Positions 3,053 through 40,117 of a DNA stretch of 64,000 bases are shown here, piece by piece. A program made the position numbers and the translations under genes. How positions within the stretch are numbered: the first letter of the stretch is position 1; each line of letters starts with the position of its first letter. The stretch is from NCBI GenBank assembly GCA_000146045.2, contig BK006944.2, positions 288,001 to 352,000 on the forward strand, read 5' to 3'. Under the pieces are notes generated by a model. That model had not been told where the DNA came from. It worked only from the letters and a program-made list of their open reading frames with translations, and made no database searches. Source of the stretch: TPA_inf: Saccharomyces. Its lineage: Eukaryota.

Positions 3053-3452
3053 GTCACCTACTCTTAGCGCATTTTTATTGTATATAAAGGCATTTAATGT
3101 AATTTATAGAGCATTATAAATCGTAACAACTACTGCAGTATGAGTTTCATGGATTCATTTCTCAATATCTTATGAATATACACAGGTATATATGTATATT
3201 CATGTTAAACGCCTTTCGAATTGTTCGTTGGCTTTTTTTGTGAAATTATCTCGGGAAAAGGGCGAAATTATATTATTTTGCCGTTGACATTTTGAAAAGG
3301 AATAAAAGATCATGAAAAAAATAAGAAAGGCAATTCGACGCATTTCTCTCAGCAAGCTATTCTTTACTTTTGAAGAACAAAATATTTTAGCAAAAAGGTT
3401 AAGACAATATAGTCGGAAGCAGTTCTGCGGGATCTGAAGGAATTGCGGAATA

Positions 3453-4631
3453 ATGAGATTTCACGATAGTATACTTATCTTCTTTTCTTTGGCATCGCTT
3501 TATCAACATGTTCATGGTGCAAGACAAGTCGTTCGTCCAAAGGAGAAAATGACTACTTCAGAAGAAGTTAAACCTTGGTTACGTACGGTTTATGGAAGTC
3601 AAAAAGAATTAGTCACTCCTACGGTCATTGCCGGTGTCACTTTTTCTGAAAAACCAGAAGAAACACCAAATCCATTGAAACCTTGGGTATCTTTAGAGCA
3701 TGATGGTAGGCCAAAAACCATTAAACCAGAAATCAACAAAGGTCGAACCAAGAAGGGAAGACCTGATTACTCAACTTACTTCAAAACGGTAAGTTCCCAC
3801 ACATATTCTTATGAAGAATTGAAGGCTCACAATATGGGCCCTAATGAAGTTTTTGTAGAAGAAGAGTATATTGATGAAGATGACACCTACGTCTCCCTGA
3901 ATCCTATTGTCAGATGTACTCCTAATCTTTACTTCAATAAAGGTCTAGCAAAGGATATCCGCAGTGAGCCATTTTGTACCCCTTATGAGAATTCTAGATG
4001 GAAGGTTGACAAGACTTACTTCGTTACTTGGTATACAAGATTTTTTACAGATGAGAATTCCGGTAAAGTTGCTGATAAGGTTCGTGTTCATTTGTCCTAT
4101 GTTAAAGAAAACCCCGTAGAGAAGGGCAATTATAAAAGAGATATCCCTGCAACTTTTTTCTCTTCCGAATGGATTGATAATGACAACGGTCTAATGCCGG
4201 TTGAGGTCAGAGATGAATGGCTGCAGGACCAATTTGATCGTAGGATCGTTGTATCAGTTCAGCCAATATACATATCAGATGAAGATTTCGATCCACTACA
4301 ATACGGTATTTTATTATACATCACTAAGGGTTCAAAAGTGTTTAAGCCTACTAAGGAGCAACTGGCTTTAGACGATGCAGGTATAACAAATGATCAGTGG
4401 TATTATGTTGCATTATCTATCCCTACTGTCGTGGTGGTATTTTTCGTCTTCATGTACTTTTTCTTATATGTCAACGGGAAAAACAGAGATTTCACAGATG
4501 TTACTAGAAAAGCTTTAAACAAGAAACGCCGTGTTTTGGGTAAGTTCTCGGAGATGAAGAAATTCAAAAACATGAAAAATCACAAGTACACCGAATTGCC
4601 ATCTTATAAGAAAACCAGTAAACAAAATTAG
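3453..4631 (+). CDS. PSG1: Secretory-pathway membrane protein YKL077W (N-terminal signal peptide, C-terminal TM segment, lysine-rich tail)
   Basis: 392-aa ORF with a hydrophobic N-terminus (ILIFFSLASLYQHVHG), a TM helix near the C-terminus (ALSIPTVVVVFFVFMYFFLYV) and a KK-rich tail. Length and position match YKL077W. Confidence 0.75.
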   Translation: MRFHDSILIFFSLASLYQHVHGARQVVRPKEKMTTSEEVKPWLRTVYGSQKELVTPTVIAGVTFSEKPEETPNPLKPWVSLEHDGRPKTIKPEINKGRTKKGRPDYSTYFKTVSSHTYSYEELKAHNMGPNEVFVEEEYIDEDDTYVSLNPIVRCTPNLYFNKGLAKDIRSEPFCTPYENSRWKVDKTYFVTWYTRFFTDENSGKVADKVRVHLSYVKENPVEKGNYKRDIPATFFSSEWIDNDNGLMPVEVRDEWLQDQFDRRIVVSVQPIYISDEDFDPLQYGILLYITKGSKVFKPTKEQLALDDAGITNDQWYYVALSIPTVVVVFFVFMYFFLYVNGKNRDFTDVTRKALNKKRRVLGKFSEMKKFKNMKNHKYTELPSYKKTSKQN

Positions 4632-29763: not shown

Positions 29764-32673
29764 ATGAGCACTGATAACTCACAAAAGGATGAAGGTGTTC
29801 CTTTGCTTTCCCCTTACTCTAGTAGCCCTCAACTAAGGAAAAAGAAGCGCAATCAAAAAAGAAGAAAGGACAAGTTTGTTGGTCACTTGAAGTCAGACTC
29901 ACGTAGGCCAACGCAACTGCTGCATGATAATCTGCAACACAATCACGGCCAGATTACTGATTTCGACCAGATCGATTCCTGGGGCATGCTGCATGAATCT
30001 GATTCTACAAGTAATGATATAATAAAAAGTGAGGATCCATCGCTCAAGGGCGCGTTCATTGATCATAGACCTTCAATGAGCCAACCTAGGGAGGGGCCTC
30101 AAAGTGTATCAAGCACAGTTCAACCACAGCCAATAATGAAGTTTTCAACACCAAGTTACAAGAAACCCGCAGGGTTAAGACCCTCTGATCAGAATAGATC
30201 ATTAGTATCGGACTTATCCCCTTCAGAGCTTGAATCATGGCTGAAGAGAAGGAAATCTGTTCATAAGAGTTTTGTTGACGAAAACTCCCCCACCGATAGG
30301 AGACAATCGAACGCGAATAATGATGTCGTGATTGATGTTGATGCGTTAATGAACCATGTTAACAACAATGCAAGTACTGGGGTTAATGATAACAGCAAGA
30401 GAAGAAAGAAAAAGAGGGGTTCTGATGATAGTAGCAACAAAAATTCCAAATCCACATCCAGTGATTCAAACGATGAAGAGGATGAGTATAACTCAAGGCC
30501 ATCTTCTAGTCTTTCTTCAAATAACTCTTCTTTGGATGACGTTTGTTTAGTGCTTGATGATGAGGGTAGCGAAGTGCCAAAAGCTTGGCCTGATTGTACT
30601 GTTTTGGAAGAATTTTCCAAGGAAGAAACAGAGAGACTAAGAAGTCAAGCTATTCAAGATGCTGAAGCTTTCCACTTCCAATACGATGAAGATGAGGAAG
30701 ATGGAACATCAAATGAAGATGGAATTCTTTTTTCAAAGCCAATCGTAACTAATATTGATGTCCCTGAATTGGGAAACAGAAGGGTAAACGAAACAGAGAA
30801 TTTGAAGAACGGCCGTTTAAGGCCAAAAAGAATTGCGCCATGGCATTTGATTCAACGTCCAATGGTCCTTGGGTCCAATTCAACCAAGGACTCAAAATCA
30901 AGAATTCAAAGCGGATTACAAGATAACTTACTAGTCGGCAGAAATATTCAATATCCTCCGCATATTATTTCTAATAACCCAGAACATTTCAGGTTCACTT
31001 ATTTTAGGGTGGATTTGGACTCTACTGTTCATTCTCCGACAATATCTGGTTTACTGCAACCTGGTCAAAAATTTCAAGATTTATTTGTCGCTTCTATATA
31101 CTCCCAAGATAATAGCGCTGGTCATATCAAGACACATCCAAATTCTCCAACACCTGGTATAAAAGCAGAAACTGTATCTCAACTCCAGGGATTGACAGCT
31201 AAAAACCCTTCCACTTTATCGTCTATGTCTGTGGCAAATATAGAGGATGTTCCTCCATTCTGGTTGGATGTCAGCAATCCTACTGAAGAGGAGATGAAAA
31301 TATTAAGTAAAGCTTTCGGAATTCACCCTTTAACTACAGAAGATATTTTTTTGGGAGAAGTTCGTGAGAAAGTGGAACTATTTAGAGATTATTACCTGAT
31401 TTGTTTTAGAAGTTTCGATATTGTAGCAGAAAAGCATGTTCGTCGGAGGAGAAAAGAAAAGCAAGAATCTGCTACCTTGGATCATGAAAGTATTTCACGT
31501 CGTAAATCACAAGCCTATGGTGCTACTATGTCAAATGAATCAAATGCAAATAACAATAACAGTACAAGCAATGCAAGTAGGAGCAAATGGCTTCCATCGA
31601 TTTTACGTGCACGCCGTCGGTCATCTGCAAATAGAACAACCAATACATCATCATCAAGCTATAAACGCCGTGTCAAAAGCGAAAAGAAAAAGATGGAAGA
31701 GAACGAAAAATTCAAAAGAAAATCAGGAGACAGGCACAAACCACGTGAGGGAGAATTAGAGCCATTGAATGTTTACATTATTGTTTTCAGAACTGGTGTA
31801 TTGACGTTTCATTTTGCTCCCACACCACATCCTATTAATGTTCGAAGAAGAGCAAGACTACTAAAGGATTACCTTAATGTTACCTCTGATTGGATTGCGT
31901 ATGCCTTAATCGATGACATTACAGACGCATTTGCCCCTATGATAGAACTTATCGAAGATGAAGTTTATGAGATTGAGGACGCCATTTTGAAGATGCATCA
32001 GTCAGATGATTCTAGTGATAGCGATTCTAGCGATAGTGATTCCGATTCGGGCGCTAGCGATGAGGATGCATTTCCGTTCGATGTCTATTCTAAAAAGACG
32101 TCCTACTCTAGTGCAAAATCTAGTGTGAGTTCAAGAAGTATGAGCACTTCTGAAGCGTCATTCAATGCAAATTTGATAGGTTGGAAGAGAAAAGGAGATA
32201 TGTTGAGGCGGATTGGTGAATGCCGTAAAAGAGTGATGAGTATACTAAGATTGCTAGGATCCAAGGCTGATGTGATAAAAGGATTTGCCAAAAGGTATAA
32301 TGAGCAATGGGAAGCTTCGCCACAATCTGAAATCGCAATGTATTTGGGTGATATTCAAGATCATATTGTAACCATGGTCTCATCGCTAAACCATTATGAA
32401 AAACTGTTAAGTAGATCGCATTCAAATTATCTGGCACAAATCAACATTGATATGACGAAGGTTAATAATGACATGAACGACGTTTTGGGAAAAATTACCA
32501 TACTGGGTACTATTGTTCTGCCAATGAATGTGATTACGGGTCTGTGGGGTATGAATGTTATCGTGCCCGGACAATACAGGGATTCGTTGACATGGTTTAT
32601 AGGCATTGTGCTTTTTATGTGTATGCTAGCATGTTCTGCATATATGTATACTAAGAGAAGATTCGGGTTTTAA
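29764..32673 (+). CDS. MNR2: CorA-family Mg2+ transporter (vacuolar membrane)
   Basis: 969 aa. The C-terminus has two TM helices with the signature GMN motif (LWGMNVIVPGQ). A long S/N/D-rich N-terminal region precedes them. Matches YKL064W. Confidence 0.9.
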   Translation: MSTDNSQKDEGVPLLSPYSSSPQLRKKKRNQKRRKDKFVGHLKSDSRRPTQLLHDNLQHNHGQITDFDQIDSWGMLHESDSTSNDIIKSEDPSLKGAFIDHRPSMSQPREGPQSVSSTVQPQPIMKFSTPSYKKPAGLRPSDQNRSLVSDLSPSELESWLKRRKSVHKSFVDENSPTDRRQSNANNDVVIDVDALMNHVNNNASTGVNDNSKRRKKKRGSDDSSNKNSKSTSSDSNDEEDEYNSRPSSSLSSNNSSLDDVCLVLDDEGSEVPKAWPDCTVLEEFSKEETERLRSQAIQDAEAFHFQYDEDEEDGTSNEDGILFSKPIVTNIDVPELGNRRVNETENLKNGRLRPKRIAPWHLIQRPMVLGSNSTKDSKSRIQSGLQDNLLVGRNIQYPPHIISNNPEHFRFTYFRVDLDSTVHSPTISGLLQPGQKFQDLFVASIYSQDNSAGHIKTHPNSPTPGIKAETVSQLQGLTAKNPSTLSSMSVANIEDVPPFWLDVSNPTEEEMKILSKAFGIHPLTTEDIFLGEVREKVELFRDYYLICFRSFDIVAEKHVRRRRKEKQESATLDHESISRRKSQAYGATMSNESNANNNNSTSNASRSKWLPSILRARRRSSANRTTNTSSSSYKRRVKSEKKKMEENEKFKRKSGDRHKPREGELEPLNVYIIVFRTGVLTFHFAPTPHPINVRRRARLLKDYLNVTSDWIAYALIDDITDAFAPMIELIEDEVYEIEDAILKMHQSDDSSDSDSSDSDSDSGASDEDAFPFDVYSKKTSYSSAKSSVSSRSMSTSEASFNANLIGWKRKGDMLRRIGECRKRVMSILRLLGSKADVIKGFAKRYNEQWEASPQSEIAMYLGDIQDHIVTMVSSLNHYEKLLSRSHSNYLAQINIDMTKVNNDMNDVLGKITILGTIVLPMNVITGLWGMNVIVPGQYRDSLTWFIGIVLFMCMLACSAYMYTKRRFGF

Positions 32674-32823
32674 TTTAAGTGTTTTTTCGCGCATTAGCGC
32701 TTGCTTTTCCTTCGATTTTAATTATCAGCCTAAATTATTGTTGTCTTTCCCGAAGGATAGAATTGTAAATTATCAGCGCCGTATCGTATACTTGTGGTGA
32801 TAAATATCTTTAATCTATTTATG

Positions 32824-32843
32824 TTTTTTTTTTTTTTTTTTTT
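32824..32843. repeat. Poly(dT) tract, T20
   Basis: An uninterrupted run of 20 T residues between the convergent 3' ends of MNR2 and YKL063C. Confidence 0.95.
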
Positions 32844-33014
32844 CGTGTCTGGTTTCTACATGTTTGTGAACGTTCTGCATATCTTTATGTACGTACACAG
32901 TATGTTAGTATGCACTTATACTATACAAAGAATAAGGGAGGTGAGGTTAATCAATAAGGTTAACGTAAAACATTTATTATTTTCATCACCAAACTGTTGG
33001 AAGTTTTGAATTGG

Positions 33015-33518
33015 TTAATTATCAAGGATTTCATTGTTAGCCAAATTTTCCTTGGCGAGATCTTGTTTCTCTTTCTGGAGTTGCTGTTTTTGTTCTTTTT
33101 TGTCCTTGTTTATTTGTTTTTGCTTTTCTGAATCAATTTGTGGTTTCAAATCGTTCTCCAAATTCTTTACTTCTTGTTGCTTTGCGACTTCATTATTGAA
33201 CTTTTCTTTAGGTACTTTAGCTTGTTGTGGTTGCTTATTGTTAGTCGCATCAGCTGCACCGCCGGCTGCAATATTGGTATGATCGCTTGCACTTGCAGAA
33301 ACATCAGAAGAATGGCTTTCTAGCTTGATCTCAGTTTCTTTATTCAGATCAGAATAGGCAACTTTTATAACGAAATAAACGCCACATAACAGTATAATGT
33401 ATACTATAATCTTTTTCATAGGGGTAGTCAGATAACCGCCCCTTCTTCTGGAATTATATTTGCTTCCTGTTTTATAACGAGGTAAAAGATCTTTTTTCCT
33501 TCTGATATCGCCCTGCAT
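33015..33518 (-). CDS. YKL063C: Small type II membrane protein of unknown function (Golgi-localised, YKL063C)
   Basis: 167 aa with a basic N-terminus, a single TM helix (IIVYIILLCGVYFVIKVA) and a K/Q/E-rich coiled-coil-like C-terminus. Confidence 0.75.
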   Translation of the reverse strand: MQGDIRRKKDLLPRYKTGSKYNSRRRGGYLTTPMKKIIVYIILLCGVYFVIKVAYSDLNKETEIKLESHSSDVSASASDHTNIAAGGAADATNNKQPQQAKVPKEKFNNEVAKQQEVKNLENDLKPQIDSEKQKQINKDKKEQKQQLQKEKQDLAKENLANNEILDN

Positions 33519-33765
33519 ATTTTCTATAATTATGAATCACTTTAGTTTGATTTATATTTGCTCAGAATACCCTAGCTTTATCTATATAGTACTACTACTT
33601 TGGAGGGGAGGAACGTATGTTGGAAGGCAATAGCACTCTGGTAAAGTGCTAACTCTTAATGTTAATGACGAAATCACTTTTTTTGCCTTTCTGAAAGATT
33701 GGAAGACTGTCACTGAGAAATTCGCTATTCTTTTCTTTTTCTTCGTGTTTTTTTTTGTTAGAATA

Positions 33766-33814
33766 CTGCACAGCTTGCTATCCCGCTGCACAGCTTGCTA
33801 TCCCGCTGCACAAC
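33766..33814. repeat. Tandem duplication, 2.45 copies of a 20-bp unit CTGCACAGCTTGCTATCCCG
   Basis: Two perfect adjacent copies plus a 9-bp partial third copy, about 250 bp upstream of the YKL063C ATG. Confidence 0.95.
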
Positions 33815-34329
33815 ATGAAATTGCTCACGTCGTGCCAAATTACATATAGGTGCTTACCCTGTTTATATTTTTTGCCTTCATAGCGGAGTTTTTAAGGGTA
33901 GCCCTTATGTTTTTAGCGTTCATTTGAACGAATGGCTAACGCTAAACGGAGAAGAGAGGAAAACAAGGCCGCTGGCGTTATTGCGCGTAAAAACAGGAGA
34001 TAAGCACTGTTTAACATACATTTCATTGAAAGCTTAAAGCCGCAAAAGATGAAGGGTTTTCAAAATTTTCATCTCTTGCAGTATAAGGATGCAGTGAATC
34101 TATCTACAGACAGTTGATAAAAACGTCTACCTTGCCTAGTGTACCCAGCTGCTGTCAACTTCTTTCCTTAGCGCGTAAAGAGCTATGTTTTCGATAAAAG
34201 ATGCAACATAAATGCTACGATGTAAGGCACCCAGGACCTCTGAAGGCAAAGAAGTTGTGAAATTTGAAAAATAATCGCTCAAAAAGGAATAATTGTCAAG
34301 CGTAACGATTTTTTTGATTTTCCGAAATC

Positions 34330-34358
34330 AGGGGAGGGGAAAAGAAAAGGGGAAGGGG
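34330..34358. promoter_or_regulatory. Cluster of four AGGGG (STRE) motifs in the YKL063C-MSN4 intergenic region
   Basis: cAGGGGAGGGGaaaagaaaAGGGGaAGGGGtc has AGGGG at 34330, 34335, 34348 and 34354. The STRE core bound by Msn2/Msn4 is AGGGG/CCCCT. Confidence 0.5.
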
Positions 34359-34439
34359 TCTCCTCACAGGTATTGTGAGCTCCAAGCAATCATTTTGCCA
34401 GCACTAGGAAATAATAAAATGAAAGAAAAAAACATACAT

Positions 34440-34760
34440 AGAAAGTGCCGCTCCGGGGCATTTTGAGCGCGGCAAAAAAAGCCCGAAGATCCGTTCCTCG
34501 AAGGAACGGCAACCGCACACCAAGAAAAAGGGAAAAAGGTGGGGTTGGCTGTAAAGTACGAGCGCGGGGACGGATCCGTAACAATTTCTATGTGGGGCCA
34601 GCAGCCGGCTGCTGGTGGGTACTGTTGTACGAAGCGGTTGGTAGCGATGACAGTGGCCAGGGCTGCTAGGCATGGTGCCGTGAAAACCCAGCGCAAATGT
34701 CAGGCTGCAGGAACCGGCTTTCTCCCACGAGGTTTCACTGCTGGCGGCGTACTGGTCATT
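34440..34760. other. GC-rich (~55-60% GC) palindrome-rich island, atypical for yeast intergenic DNA. Function unknown; could be a regulatory island or a structured non-coding transcript
   Basis: There is an 18-bp perfect palindrome CCAGCAGCCGGCTGCTGG (34598-34615), an 8-bp-stem hairpin CCGTTCCTcgaAGGAACGG (34491-34509), and CTCACAggtatTGTGAG (34363-34379) just upstream. All six frames carry stop-poor ORFs of 64-110 aa with no protein-like composition. Confidence 0.6.
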
Positions 34761-35227
34761 TTTAGAACCTGAAAACCCGAGCTAGAACTAGGACTCTTGA
34801 GCAATAAGGTTTGCGCATTGCTATTCTCCGGATAAACCAAACCCACCCTTTTAAGAGCGTTTAACAAAGGTCTCTTATCTATCAAAAGTATTATGGCTAT
34901 TTCTGGGATTCCGCTTGCGGGCCTTTCTACCCTCTTGATGCTACACATGTTTCCCTTAGATGCATGAGCATACCTGTAGGTACTTAAATTTTATTTTTAT
35001 GCATCTTATTTCTGTCTAAATTTGTATATAACAAGCAACTGCAGTTCTGTGATGTGTTTTTCGCAACTGGTCAACAGGCTTAAGAATTTTTCCGTCTCTT
35101 TCCGTTTTATTTCCAGAGAATTAACATTTATAGAGAAAAGAATTAAAACGTGAAATTTCCTTTTTGAATATTTAACGCCTTTATCAGTTCGGCTTTTTTT
35201 TCTTTTCTTCTTATTAAAAACAATATA

Positions 35228-37120
35228 ATGCTAGTCTTCGGACCTAATAGTAGTTTCGTTCGTCACGCAAACAAGAAACAAGAAGATTCGTCTATAATGA
35301 ACGAGCCAAACGGATTGATGGACCCGGTATTGAGCACAACCAACGTTTCTGCTACTTCTTCTAATGACAATTCTGCGAACAATAGCATATCTTCGCCGGA
35401 ATATACCTTTGGTCAATTCTCAATGGATTCTCCGCATAGAACGGACGCCACTAATACTCCAATTTTAACAGCGACAACTAATACGACTGCTAATAATAGT
35501 TTAATGAATTTAAAGGATACCGCCAGTTTAGCTACCAACTGGAAGTGGAAAAATTCCAATAACGCACAGTTCGTGAATGACGGTGAGAAACAAAGCAGTA
35601 ATGCTAATGGTAAGAAAAATGGTGGTGATAAGATATATAGTTCAGTAGCCACCCCTCAAGCTTTAAATGACGAATTGAAAAACTTGGAGCAACTAGAAAA
35701 GGTATTTTCTCCAATGAATCCTATCAATGACAGTCATTTTAATGAAAATATAGAATTATCGCCACACCAACATGCAACTTCTCCCAAGACAAACCTTCTT
35801 GAGGCAGAACCTTCAATATATTCCAATTTGTTTCTAGATGCTAGGTTACCAAACAACGCCAACAGTACAACAGGATTGAACGACAATGATTATAATCTAG
35901 ACGATACCAATAATGATAATACTAATAGCATGCAATCAATCTTAGAGGATTTTGTATCTTCAGAAGAAGCATTGAAGTTCATGCCGGACGCTGGTCGCGA
36001 CGCAAGAAGATACAGCGAGGTGGTTACCTCTTCCTTTCCTTCTATGACGGATTCTAGAAATTCGATCTCTCATTCGATAGAGTTTTGGAATCTCAATCAC
36101 AAAAATAGTAGCAACAGTAAACCCACTCAACAAATTATCCCTGAAGGTACTGCCACTACTGAGAGGCGTGGATCAACCATTTCACCTACTACCACTATAA
36201 ACAACTCTAATCCAAACTTCAAATTATTAGATCATGACGTTTCTCAAGCTCTGAGCGGTTATAGTATGGATTTTTCTAAGGACTCTGGTATAACAAAGCC
36301 AAAAAGCATTTCCTCTTCTTTAAATCGCATCTCCCATAGCAGTAGCACCACAAGGCAACAGCGTGCCTCTTTGCCCTTAATTCATGATATTGAATCTTTT
36401 GCAAATGATTCGGTGATGGCAAATCCTCTGTCTGATTCCGCATCATTTCTTTCAGAAGAAAATGAAGACGATGCTTTTGGTGCGCTAAATTACAATAGCT
36501 TAGATGCAACCACAATGTCGGCATTCGACAATAACGTAGACCCCTTCAACATTCTCAAGTCATCTCCGGCTCAGGATCAACAGTTTATCAAACCCTCTAT
36601 GATGTTGTCGGATAATGCCTCTGCTGCCGCTAAATTGGCGACTTCTGGTGTTGATAATATCACACCTACACCAGCTTTCCAAAGAAGAAGCTATGATATC
36701 TCGATGAACTCTTCGTTCAAAATACTTCCTACTAGTCAAGCTCACCATGCAGCTCAACATCATCAACAACAACCTACTAAACAGGCAACGGTAAGCCCAA
36801 ACACAAGAAGAAGAAAGTCGTCAAGTGTTACTTTAAGTCCAACTATTTCTCATAACAACAACAATGGTAAGGTTCCTGTCCAACCTCGGAAAAGGAAATC
36901 TATTACTACCATTGACCCCAACAACTACGATAAAAATAAACCTTTCAAGTGTAAAGACTGTGAGAAGGCATTCAGACGCAGTGAGCACTTGAAAAGGCAT
37001 ATAAGATCCGTTCATTCAACGGAACGCCCTTTTGCTTGTATGTTCTGTGAGAAAAAATTCAGTAGAAGTGACAATTTATCACAACATCTAAAAACTCACA
37101 AAAAGCACGGTGATTTTTGA
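35228..37120 (+). CDS. MSN4: Stress-responsive C2H2 zinc-finger transcription factor
   Basis: 630 aa. The C-terminus has two C2H2 fingers ([24 protein letters not shown]; [23 protein letters not shown]) after a long S/N/T-rich region. Confidence 0.95.
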
Positions 37121-37770
37121 AAAAAATAAGGTCAAAAGCAAATAAAAGCAAGACAAGCTACGGTATGACAAGTTTTCGGAGAAATAATATTCTTTCTTCC
37201 TCAGTTTACAAAACAAGTAGGTTGGTCATTTCATTCGGATATATTCTAAGGAATGAAATGAACATTGGTGTTTGTTTCTAATATAATCTTAAGATATTTT
37301 AAATTGTTTCTTTCCTTTTTTGCCTTTCTAACTATTACTTCAACTTCTTTTCCGTATATTTCCGTTTTTTCCATTTGGCAGATTAAAAAAATTGTGCACG
37401 TTCTGGTTTTAACGTATAGACTTCTAATATATTTCTCCATACTTGGTATTTTTTATTCACTTTTTTTATACATATTTGGTTTTTTTATACAATATCAAAA
37501 ATCAATAATAATTAATTTAATAACAAGAATATGTTGCTGTGATGACTCTTAATATACAATTGGGAAGCATTCAAGGATTGGTACGACGTTTGCTTTCTGA
37601 TAATTAAACGCTTGGCGTTTAATCTTTTTTGCCGATTAATAATATTATTATTACCCTCTTATTTATTAGCATTGTCTTCCGTACTAAAAGGAGTAGGGAA
37701 AAAGGCGAAGTAGAGTGACACGTCCATTACCCAGCGCTTCATAAGAATCCATCAGGTATATTAAATTGTG

Positions 37771-38112
37771 ATGGGAGAACAAAACAAATTGTACTATGAT
37801 GTCGAGAAATTGGTGAATTCTTTGCAGGAAAGTTTTGACCTGGATTGCGCGCAAAGTGTATCACTTTTCACCAGTAAATCAAGGAGCAATGAGGCTTGGT
37901 TGGAAGAGCTAGAGAATAAATTCAAGTTAAAAGATGATGTTGAACTTGATGATGTGGAAAATTTAAGAGCCGAAATTGACATGAAGTTAAATATGTTGGA
38001 GGATAAAGTAAGCTACTATGAAAGACTTTACAAAGAACTCGAAGAGTTCCAGAATGAAATAAAAATTAAAACAGTTGTGAATAACAGAAGACAATCGCGA
38101 ACTCCAAAATGA
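37771..38112 (+). CDS. BLI1: BLOC-1 complex subunit (small coiled-coil protein)
   Basis: The track ORF is 114 aa. The second Met gives 113 aa, matching YKL061W. The sequence is predicted coiled-coil. Confidence 0.7.
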
Positions 38113-38407
38113 GCTATCAAAAACGATAGATCGATTAGGATGACTTTGAAATGACTCCGCAGTGGACTGGCCGTTAATTTCAAGCGTGAGTAAAATAGTG
38201 CATGACAAAAGATGAGCTAGGCTTTTGTAAAAATATCTTACGTTGTAAAATTTTAGAAATCATTATTTCCTTCATATCATTTTGTCATTGACCTTCAGAA
38301 GAAAAGAGCCGACCAATAATATAAATAAATAAATAAAAATAATATTCCATTATTTCTAAACAGATTCAATACTCATTAAAAAACTATATCAATTAATTTG
38401 AATTAAC

Positions 38408-39487
38408 TTATAAAGTGTTAGTGGTACGGAAAGTTTCCAAAGACTTGGTGATCTTAGCACCCATGGTCTTTTCACCTTCTCTAACCCAGACTCTTGGGTC
38501 GAAGAACTTCTTGTTTGGCTTTTCTGGACCTTCTGGGTTACCGACTGGGGACATTATGTAGTCCTTCTTGTTCAAGACGTAGTCTCTGATACCAGTCAAG
38601 TAAGCGTATTGACAGTCAGTGTCCAAGTTGACCTTGACAACACCGTTGTCAATACCAGTGTGGAATTCTTGGACAGTAGAACCGGAACCACCGTGGAAGA
38701 CCAAGAACAATGGCTTTTCTTCCTTGCAACCAACTTGTTCTCTGGTGTACTTTTGGTGTTCAGCCAAGATTTCTGGTCTCAAAGCGATGTCACCAGCGTA
38801 CAAACCGTGACAGTTACCGAAAGCAGCAGCAATGGAGAAGTTTGGAGAGATTGGGTGCAAAGCCTTGTAGACGTTGTAAACTTGTTCTGGCTTGGTGTAC
38901 AAGTCTTCCTTGTCAGCGTTTTCGTTGTTAACACCATCTTCTTCACCACCGGTAATACCGATTTCCATTTCTAACCATTGGTCCATAGCGGCCATTCTCT
39001 TGAAGTACTTGACACAAGTAGAGATGTTTTCTTCATCGGTTTCTTCAGACAAATCCAACATGTGGGAGGAGAATAATGGTTCACCGTGTTCCTTGAAGTA
39101 AGCTTCATCAGCTTCCAACATACCATCGAACCATGGCAACAACTTCTTGGCACAGTGGTCAGAGTGTAAGACAACTGGGATACCGTAAGCTGGAGCAATG
39201 GATCTGATGTAGTGGGCAGCGGCAATAGCACCCTTGATGGAAGCATTTTGACCTTCGTTAGAGATACCCTTACCAGCGAAGTAAGCAGCACCACCGTTAG
39301 AGGTTTGCAAAATGATTGGGGACTTGCTGTCTCTAGCAGCTTCTAAAGCAGCGACGGCAGTAGAAGAAGAGGTGACGTTAATAGCTGGAATAGCGAACTT
39401 GTGTTCCTTAGCGTAAGTGAATAAGTTGTGGACATCTTCACCAACGATGACACCGGTCTTTCTCTTTAAGATTTGTTCAACACCCAT
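38408..39487 (-). CDS. FBA1: Fructose-1,6-bisphosphate aldolase, class II (zinc-dependent)
   Basis: 359 aa, beginning MGVEQILKRKTGVIVGEDVHNLF...HSDHCAKK...FHGGSGS. This is the unmistakable class II aldolase, with strongly biased glycolytic codon usage. Confidence 0.98.
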   Translation of the reverse strand: MGVEQILKRKTGVIVGEDVHNLFTYAKEHKFAIPAINVTSSSTAVAALEAARDSKSPIILQTSNGGAAYFAGKGISNEGQNASIKGAIAAAHYIRSIAPAYGIPVVLHSDHCAKKLLPWFDGMLEADEAYFKEHGEPLFSSHMLDLSEETDEENISTCVKYFKRMAAMDQWLEMEIGITGGEEDGVNNENADKEDLYTKPEQVYNVYKALHPISPNFSIAAAFGNCHGLYAGDIALRPEILAEHQKYTREQVGCKEEKPLFLVFHGGSGSTVQEFHTGIDNGVVKVNLDTDCQYAYLTGIRDYVLNKKDYIMSPVGNPEGPEKPNKKFFDPRVWVREGEKTMGAKITKSLETFRTTNTL

Positions 39488-39982
39488 TTTGAATATGTAT
39501 TACTTGGTTATGGTTATATATGACAAAAGAAAAAGAAGAACAGAAGAATAACGCAAGGAAGAACAATAACTGAAATTGATAGAGAAGTATTATGTCTTTG
39601 TCTTTTTATAATAAATCAAGTGCAGAAATCCGTTAGACAACATGAGGGATAAAATTTAACGTGGGCGAAGAAGAAGGAAAAAAGTTTTTGTGAGGGCGTA
39701 ATTGAAGCGATCTGTTGATTGTAGATTTTTTTTTTTTGAGGAGTCAAAGTCAGAAGAGAACAGACAAATGGTATTAACCATCCAATACTTTTTTGGAGCA
39801 ACGCTAAGCTCATGCTTTTCCATTGGTTACGTGCTCAGTTGTTAGATATGGAAAGAGAGGATGCTCACGGCAGCGTGACTCCAATTGAGCCCGAAAGAGA
39901 GGATGCCACGTTTTCCCGACGGCTGCTAGAATGGAAAAAGGAAAAATAGAAGAATCCCATTCCTATCATTATTTACGTAATG

Positions 39983-39994
39983 ACCCACACATTT
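39983..39994. promoter_or_regulatory. Rap1-type site (ACCCACACATTT) in the FBA1 upstream region
   Basis: It matches the Rap1 consensus ACACCCRYACAYM core (ACCCACACAT) about 500 bp upstream of the FBA1 ATG. Glycolytic promoters typically pair Rap1 with Gcr1 CTTCC boxes. Confidence 0.45.
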
Positions 39995-40117
39995 TTGAGA
40001 TTTTCAACTATTACGTATTACGATAATCCTGCTGTCATTATCATTATTATCTATATCGACGTATGCAACGTATGTGAAGCCAAGTAGGCAATTATTTAGT
40101 ACTGTCAGTATTGTTAT

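Follow-up and report, generated by a model that had tools for sequence, protein, structure and literature searches.

The general stress response of yeast is governed by two master regulators, one of which is MSN4, and the inducibility of MSN4 itself distinguishes it from its paralogue MSN2. The nucleosome-free regions (NFRs) of yeast are normally A/T-rich. Here we describe a segment of unusually high guanine-plus-cytosine (GC) content upstream of MSN4 of Saccharomyces cerevisiae, at positions 34440-34760 of a stretch of 64,000 nucleotides (contig BK006944.2, positions 288,001 to 352,000 of the forward strand). This whole stretch is called the window; unsigned positions count from its first letter and negative ones from the ATG of the gene named. 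With a rough probability of 0.8, this GC-rich island forms the core of the distal cis-regulatory region, i.e., an upstream activating or repressing sequence (UAS/URS), of the MSN4 promoter. It is an element of a known kind at a known and already studied locus, and it is unusual only in its GC content.

Previously Described Promoters Related to the MSN4 Locus

The closest described system is the MSN4 promoter itself. In the available parts of the study by Chapal et al. (2019, PMC6874299), MSN4 is reported to have a TATA box and a transcription start site (TSS) ~105 bp upstream, in a nucleosome-occupied region. Both the TSS and the TATA box are conserved in the species that arose after the whole-genome duplication (post-WGD species), and MSN4 is suggested to have gained transcription factor (TF) sites after the duplication. 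The interval from -400 to -650 was taken to contain predicted sites for many factors. Deletion of the NFR region abolished Msn4 induction and, according to the accessible portion of the preprint of the same work, deletions nearer the open reading frame (ORF) had little further effect. In the source data, two of the five promoter truncations lose induction, with a maximum fluorescence of ~135 compared to 328 in the wild type. The swapped NFR(+TSS) segment is named promoter(400-650) in the strain table, and this numbering must count from the ATG, because the TSS of MSN2 (~-430) has to fall inside the segment.

Two further groups of promoters are relevant. MSN4 resembles the long, multi-factor TATA promoters of the "flexible/noisy" kind (the occupied-proximal-nucleosome class), with which it shares the TATA box, a 1.7-kb intergenic region, many conserved stress and nutrient sites and high inducibility. 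Such promoters are usually A/T-rich, whereas that of MSN4 contains 320 bp at 57% GC, 4.5 standard deviations (sd) above the window mean. The GC-rich promoters at recombination hotspots in which de novo ORFs are cradled (Vakirlis et al., preprint 10.1101/119768) have in common with the island a GC-rich divergent intergenic setting and fortuitous long ORFs. In contrast to them, the island lacks a GC-enriching bias, is constrained and contains no conserved ORF.

The GC-Rich Island and Its Locus

The survey covered the 64-kb window and nine fetched loci. The island is housed in a divergent intergenic region of 1,709 bp between an ORF of 167 amino acids (aa) on the minus strand and MSN4 on the plus strand:

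34440-34760, unstranded: GC-rich island, 57.3% GC in the GC profile, 56-60% in six Saccharomyces species
34578-34828, unstranded: interval from -650 to -400 of MSN4, which takes in the 3' 60% of the island and, beyond it, the blocks with TAGAAC and CTCCGG
35228-37120, plus strand: MSN4 coding sequence, a C2H2 zinc-finger ORF of 630 aa (ORF list, protein comparison)
33015-33518, minus strand: ORF of 167 aa at the position of YKL063C (ORF list)

Among all 321-bp windows across the 64 kb (mean 37.6% GC, sd 4.4), that at 34440-34760 ranks first, and the next distinct peak reaches only 49.8%. The maximal-scoring GC segment, 34445-34757, has a GC content of 58.5%. The distance from the island to the MSN4 ATG (35228) is 468-788 bp, and that to the sole TATA box (35025), likewise downstream of it, is 265-585 bp. 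An earlier description made from the letters of the window (hereafter the sequence-only reading) had estimated 55-60% GC, well above background, at 470-790 bp upstream of MSN4, and the computed values agree with it. Its naming of the gene is also borne out. The 630-aa protein shares 99% identity with a 270-member cluster and 83% with an S. kudriavzevii protein named "stress-responsive transcriptional activator MSN4" by NCBI. Given this match and the same flanking genes in five other Saccharomyces genomes, the ORF is accepted as MSN4.

The 34200-34699 windows are strand-asymmetric, with an AT skew of +0.28 to +0.32 and a GC skew of +0.14 to +0.21, and the plus strand of the island is 58% purine, which explains in part why stop codons are few on both strands. 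The stop-free stretches over the island measure 43, 75, and 101 codons on the plus strand and 111, 65, and 125 codons on the minus strand. The claim that all six frames hold ORFs of 64-110 aa is thus correct for five of them, each open for at least 64 codons, and fails for the sixth (43).

The promoter analysed by Chapal et al. (2019) is that of the same locus. Its interval from -400 to -650 has a GC content of 53.8%, compared to 31.9% for the corresponding interval of MSN2. It does not reach the cluster of stress response elements (STREs) described below, nor the 5'-most 40% of the island. The available text of that study does not comment on GC content, conservation among the six species or palindromes.

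Conservation across Saccharomyces

Loci orthologous to that of S. cerevisiae were found via Msn4 orthologues in five further genomes, namely those of S. kudriavzevii, S. arboricola, S. uvarum, S. eubayanus and a S. paradoxus-like assembly, and the intergenic region as well as ~12 kb around it was aligned. All six species have the GC island at an equal offset, with 56-60% GC over the orthologous interval and a 200-bp GC peak of 57-62%. The island belongs to a longer conserved segment:

34200-35100, unstranded: conserved upstream block of MSN4, ~900 bp, with an identity across all six species of 0.36-0.59 per 100 bp

This identity of 36-59% compares with 41-77% in the MSN4 coding sequence and 5-33% in the rest of the MSN4 intergenic region and most of the neighbouring intergenic DNA. 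Consistent with this constraint, the number of polarised substitutions per site is lower in the island (0.45) than in the three control intergenic regions (0.64-0.77) and above that of the MSN4 coding sequence (0.37); i.e., the island evolves at ~60% of the neutral rate. Conservation is concentrated in discrete blocks of 6-24 bp, A/T positions included, and 19 blocks of at least 10 bp are retained in at least five of the six species. The GC-richest core of the island (34575-34700) is its least conserved part, with an all-six identity of 0.36 in the 34600-34699 bin; nonetheless, it has ~59-64% GC in every species.

MSN4 is not the only gene of the window with a promoter conserved like coding sequence: the region directly upstream of the aldolase gene FBA1 (39500-39900) has an all-six identity of 59-71% over the 39600-39899 bins.

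Neither the upstream region of MSN4 of N. castellii (788 bp) nor that of the MSN homologue of a non-WGD relative (486 bp) contains a comparable island or the conserved blocks, and the intergenic region is ~1 kb longer in Saccharomyces than in either of them. On the sequences compared, the island is a feature of the genus Saccharomyces, because these two relatives have short upstream regions without it. Its genus-specific appearance fits the gain of TF sites by MSN4 after the duplication that is suggested in the accessible parts of PMC6874299. The upstream region of N. castellii MSN4 contains an inverted pair, GTGGGGTAGTACCCCAC, at 3440-3480 of the fetched locus, in which two GGGG boxes form a palindrome, as well as several CCCTAA repeats. 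Given this palindrome, these repeats and the lack of a GC island, the upstream architecture differs outside Saccharomyces.

Conserved Blocks and Predicted Factor-Binding Sites

The conserved blocks in and around the island are as follows, from 5' to 3':

34330-34358, plus strand: four STREs (AGGGG) directly 5' of the island, three in six of six species and the fourth in five of six
34442-34458, in the island: block AAAGTGCCGCTCCGGGG (six-species alignment)
34450-34458, plus strand: block GCTCCGGGG, first copy of CTCCGG (six-species alignment)
34482-34495, in the island: block CCCGAAGATCCGTT (six-species alignment)
34532-34546, plus strand: block GAAAAAGGTGGGGTT, an A-run and a SYGGGG box (Mig1-type GC box), in five of six species
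34564-34579, unstranded: conserved GCGGGG box; GCGGGGACGG runs into the palindrome ACGGATCCGT
34592-34597, plus strand: third SYGGGG box, GTGGGG, in five of six species
34675-34684, in the island: block GTGCCGTGAA (six-species alignment)
34700-34715, plus strand: block TCAGGCTGCAGGAACC with a Sok2-type CAGGMAM match (six species)
34757-34788, plus strand: invariant blocks CATTTTTAGAAC and CGAGCTAGAAC, with TAGAAC twice, 20 bp apart (six-species alignment)
34801-34812, plus strand: invariant GCAATAAGGTTT (six-species alignment)
34824-34839, plus strand: invariant TTCTCCGGATAAACCA, second copy of CTCCGG overlapping CGGANNA and GATAA matches (six-species alignment)
34874-34880, minus strand: invariant AGATAAG (CTTATCT on the plus strand), GATA-factor consensus (six-species alignment)
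35025-35037, plus strand: invariant TATATAACAAGCA, the sole TATA[AT]A[AT] in the upstream kilobase, 203 bp before the ATG

The region was searched for the consensus sequences tabulated by MacIsaac et al. (2006), and a match was counted if it occupied the same aligned position in at least five of the six species. The matches so obtained are those to Msn2/4 (four), the Mig1 core SYGGGG (three, all on the plus strand), CGGANNA (three), GATA (two), Phd1 (two), Sok2 and Skn7. The four Msn2/4 matches are the STREs, which stand within the nearly invariant GATTTTCCGAAATCAGGGGAGGGG...AAAGAAAAGGGGAAGGGGTCTC directly 5' of the island. At the level of sequence, this cluster implies an auto/cross-regulation of MSN4 by Msn2/Msn4. 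In the palindrome ACGGATCCGT (34570-34579), both half-sites of CGG-N2-CCG are retained in all six species and the centre varies among AT, TT and CT. A heat-shock element (HSE) was considered for the TAGAAC blocks and rejected: their GAA units are spaced 6 and 20 bp apart and are not in the 5/10-bp register.

The STRE cluster can also be written as GGGG-A-GGGG-AAAAGAAAA-GGGG-AA-GGGG, i.e., four G4 tracts separated by loops of 1, 9, and 2 nt. It is a potential G-quadruplex motif on the plus strand that is largely conserved across the six species.

This base-resolution map of conserved blocks could guide mutagenesis of the four STREs, three SYGGGG boxes, CGG-N2-CCG, two TAGAAC, two CTCCGG and two GATA sites.

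The Island as a Probable Distal Regulatory Segment of the MSN4 Promoter

The island lies upstream of the TATA box and TSS, within ~1 kb of MSN4, and is made up of short conserved blocks, some of which match TF consensus sequences, as is characteristic of a UAS/URS. For this assignment, the position, constraint, block structure and failure of the alternatives were computed here, while the TSS and the requirement for induction are taken from the available portions of the literature. The sequence-only reading had set the island apart from ordinary promoter DNA; it is promoter DNA, only unusually GC-rich. The same reading had proposed a dense binding platform. This holds in the general sense that the conserved blocks match TF consensus sequences; the specificity for zinc-cluster factors that was attached to it is unproven.

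Read from 5' to 3', the proposed promoter begins with the STRE cluster at -898 to -870, followed by the GC segment at -788 to -468, in which the putative sites are the SYGGGG boxes, the CGG-N2-CCG palindrome, CTCCGG and CAGGAAC. Next come the blocks from -470 to -350 (two TAGAAC, CTCCGGATAAACCA and AGATAAG), the TATA box at -203 and the mRNA start at ~-105. Msn2/Msn4 on the four STREs would bring about the stress-dependent auto/cross-induction of MSN4. Mig1-type C2H2 repressors on the GC boxes, GATA factors and possibly one zinc-cluster dimer may occupy the conserved blocks, by which MSN4 would be coupled to glucose/carbon and nitrogen status. The high GC content would then be largely the sum of G/C-rich sites, to which a requirement of this TATA-type, noisy and highly inducible promoter for DNA that favours nucleosomes may have added.

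Several points weigh against this interpretation. Because a GC-rich NFR is unusual for yeast, it is uncertain in which chromatin state the island itself lies. The island is equated with the NFR on the basis of the strain name (400-650) and figure legends in the available parts of PMC6874299 rather than of coordinates, and only the 3' 60% of the island falls inside -400 to -650. The GC-richest core being the least conserved, discrete sites do not obviously explain the composition. The motif matches are short consensus strings of low information, which are leads, not proof of binding. A column-shuffle control of the matches was too lenient, as it breaks the contiguity of conserved columns and would let any k-mer appear enriched, and was discarded in favour of a k-mer and trinucleotide comparison.

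An odd GC island is thereby explained as a conserved part of the distal MSN4 promoter, and one candidate for a novel non-coding RNA (ncRNA) is removed. The puzzle that remains is that a regulatory region reported as nucleosome-free, in the accessible parts of the published work, has 54-58% GC. This is a modest question of promoter architecture and does not concern a new kind of element.

Alternative Explanations

The alternative that survives best, although with a small chance of being correct, is that the composition itself was selected. The island would then be a Saccharomyces-specific module, a nucleosome-favouring stretch of ~300 bp between the STREs and the core promoter, in which competition between nucleosomes and factors would yield a large dynamic range and high noise, and it may also carry the site GACGGNTCCGT for a candidate zinc-cluster regulator. 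Such selection would explain why the GC-richest core stays at 59-64% GC while it is the least conserved in sequence. For that core in particular, the composition leaves similarly limited room for selection on, e.g., nucleosome affinity.

It is improbable that the island is dedicated to the binding of Zn2Cys6 (CGG/CCG) transcription factors. The palindromic CGG-N2-CCG with both triplets in all six species, the presence of CTCCGG in two conserved blocks and the three conserved CGGANNA (Rgt1-type) matches are consistent with this proposal. CGG/CCG is also among the best-conserved trinucleotides of the upstream kilobase (17 of 27, or 63%). Its edge over the other G/C triplets, GCG/CGC (11 of 26) and GGC/GCC (13 of 28; 42-46%), is small, however, and constitutes a weak signal. 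Relative to the composition of the island, moreover, the triplets are not enriched, with 9 CGG compared to 8.5 expected (P=0.48), 9 CCG compared to 5.9 (P=0.065) and 3 CCGG compared to 2.0 (P=0.32). CCG-N3-CGG at 34449-34457 is found in four of the six species and CCGG at 34714 in two, and no known zinc-cluster factor with a CGG-N2-CCG specificity was matched. Judged from the conserved G-run boxes, C2H2 factors are the likelier binders. Of the CGG/CCG motifs for which the sequence-only reading had proposed Zn2Cys6 factors, only one CGG-N2-CCG element has both half-sites in all six species, and the two palindromes noted with them are lineage-specific.

Very improbable is a neutral origin, in which the GC richness would be a by-product of GC-biased gene conversion at a stable meiotic hotspot in a divergent promoter, without sequence-specific function. 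The intergenic region is indeed divergent, with YKL063C on the minus and MSN4 on the plus strand, yeast hotspots are described as promoter-associated, nucleosome-free and rich in GC (Vakirlis et al., preprint 10.1101/119768), and the GC-richest core is the least conserved part yet GC-rich in all species. The polarised substitutions in the island, however, comprise 69 from G/C to A/T (S>W) and 37 from A/T to G/C (W>S). The per-site S>W to W>S ratio is 1.39, like that of ordinary intergenic DNA (1.1-1.3), and so no force appears to enrich GC at present. As parsimony polarisation is biased at this divergence, this evidence is moderate rather than decisive. The reduced substitution rate and the block-wise conservation that includes A/T positions also argue against a neutral origin. 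As to a foreign source, a distant blastn search against plasmids and E. coli genomes gave no match, and a bacterial or plasmid origin was rejected.

Still less probable is a structured ncRNA, or a long and structured 5' leader carried by an alternative MSN4 isoform, that would act via secondary structure. The folding energy of the island is low in absolute terms (-117 kcal/mol for 321 nt), due to its high GC content, and the S. cerevisiae island contains two perfect hairpins. An upstream start for MSN4 is conceivable in that the TSS of its paralogue MSN2 lies ~430 bp upstream, at the edge of the NFR, according to the available parts of PMC6874299. The same source, however, places the published MSN4 TSS, conserved in post-WGD species, at ~-105, which is downstream of the island, and neither S. 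uvarum nor S. eubayanus has retained the first upstream ATG 3' of the island. The fold is as stable as that of dinucleotide shuffles (z of -0.07 for the plus and -1.46 for the minus strand). A scan of 30000-40000 on both strands against Rfam 15 by E-value gave no match at E<=1, and no tRNA or tmRNA was found with ARAGORN. In 150-nt windows on both strands, six-species RNAalifold predictions compared with column shuffles gave z of -1.5 to +1.3 and a structure conservation index (SCI) of at most 0.52.

Covariation, which the sequence-only reading had put forward as a check on its structured non-coding transcript, is equally lacking, although with six species the statistical power of these tests is limited. 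The two hairpins show no compensatory pair, and the minimum free energy (MFE) structure of S. cerevisiae has 5 double changes compared to 2.8+/-1.3 in shuffles (55 of 500), which is not above shuffles. We found no report in the literature of an upstream ORF (uORF), long leader, long undecoded transcript isoform (LUTI) or upstream transcript of MSN4. The proposed structured transcript is thus not supported by these comparisons.

Finally, the probability that the island is protein-coding, an emerging de novo gene or the relic of a lost gene is close to nil. The five frames open for 64-125 codons, the preference of de novo ORFs for GC-rich divergent intergenic regions as birthplaces (Vakirlis et al., preprint 10.1101/119768) and the greater intergenic length in Saccharomyces would fit it, but none of the six ORFs survives in the five other species owing to frame-shifting length differences, early stops and lost starts; the sole ATG-started ORF wholly within the island region (34404-34673, minus strand) lacks its ATG in all five; the alignment indels are not multiples of three; a Pfam scan of the six ORFs gave no match at E<=1, in line with the earlier verdict that none is protein-like; and open frames are expected from rare stop codons at 57% GC and a purine-skewed strand.

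Lineage-Specific Palindromes

The sequence-only reading had drawn attention to an 18-bp palindrome and a hairpin, both of which are present in the island:

34598-34615, unstranded: 18-bp perfect palindrome CCAGCAGCC/GGCTGCTGG, perfect only in S. cerevisiae
34491-34509, unstranded: hairpin CCGTTCCTcgaAGGAACGG, i.e., CCGTTCCT-cga-AGGAACGG, with an 8-bp stem, perfect only in S. cerevisiae

Within S. cerevisiae, they exceed what chance would give: a perfect arm of 9 bp arises in 0.75% of the dinucleotide shuffles of the island, and of the nine distinct palindromes in the 64 kb whose arms reach 8 bp or more, two sit in its 321 bp. At the centre of the 18-bp palindrome, S. kudriavzevii and S. uvarum lack 7 nt and S. 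eubayanus has a gap of 14 nt, while the S. paradoxus-like sequence and S. arboricola have uncompensated mismatches. Five of the six species have two broken base pairs in the 8-bp hairpin, and neither pair is compensated. At the orthologous island, no palindrome of at least 7 bp is found in the S. paradoxus-like sequence, the closest relative, or in S. kudriavzevii; S. uvarum has another one of at least 7 bp at a different place. The palindromes are lineage-specific, since they have no counterparts in the former two and that of S. uvarum is placed elsewhere. Judged from the alignment, the two long palindromes are recent S. cerevisiae-specific accidents without a conserved role. Of the two properties that were to be compared among sister species, the GC content is conserved and the palindromes are not.

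Another of these nine palindromes of the window is located in the MSN4-BLI1 intergenic region (37603-37623). It is perfect, with 9-bp arms, and reads ATTAAACGC-ttg-GCGTTTAAT.

The Upstream Region of the Paralogue MSN2

A conserved GC-rich stretch, with 53-56% GC per 200 bp, is also found upstream of MSN2 in S. cerevisiae and S. uvarum. It lies ~700-940 bp before the ATG in both species (1150-1450 of the S. cerevisiae locus, which corresponds to -920 to -620, and 3064-3400 of the S. uvarum locus), and of the 17 CCGG sites in the 8.2-kb locus it carries 8 within 250 bp. MSN2 differs from MSN4 in that its region from -400 to -650 is A/T-rich (31.9% GC), that it has no TATA box and that its TSS is at ~-430 (TATA box and TSS from the available parts of PMC6874299). 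Homology between the two upstream regions was considered and rejected, as their local alignment score is no better than that of shuffles. A shared TTCTCCGGA..ACCA string is within chance for two regions of ~1 kb and is not claimed as a relationship. In the non-WGD relative, a small ORF is located between CCS1 and the MSN homologue; as this ORF is found there, the GC-rich stretch of MSN2 appears to sit at the position of a lost gene.

Neighbouring Genes and Minor Features

Two further genes of the neighbourhood are:

29764-32673, plus strand: ORF of 969 aa of the CorA family (MNR2-like; ORF list)
After MSN4 in the gene order: ORF of 114 aa with a BLI1 family match

In the upstream part of the divergent intergenic region, at 33766-33812, is a perfect tandem duplication of the 20-bp unit CTGCACAGCTTGCTATCCCG in 2.3 copies, found only in S. 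cerevisiae in the six-species alignment. Where S. cerevisiae has this duplication, S. uvarum has a short GTGA/GCTGT microsatellite insertion.

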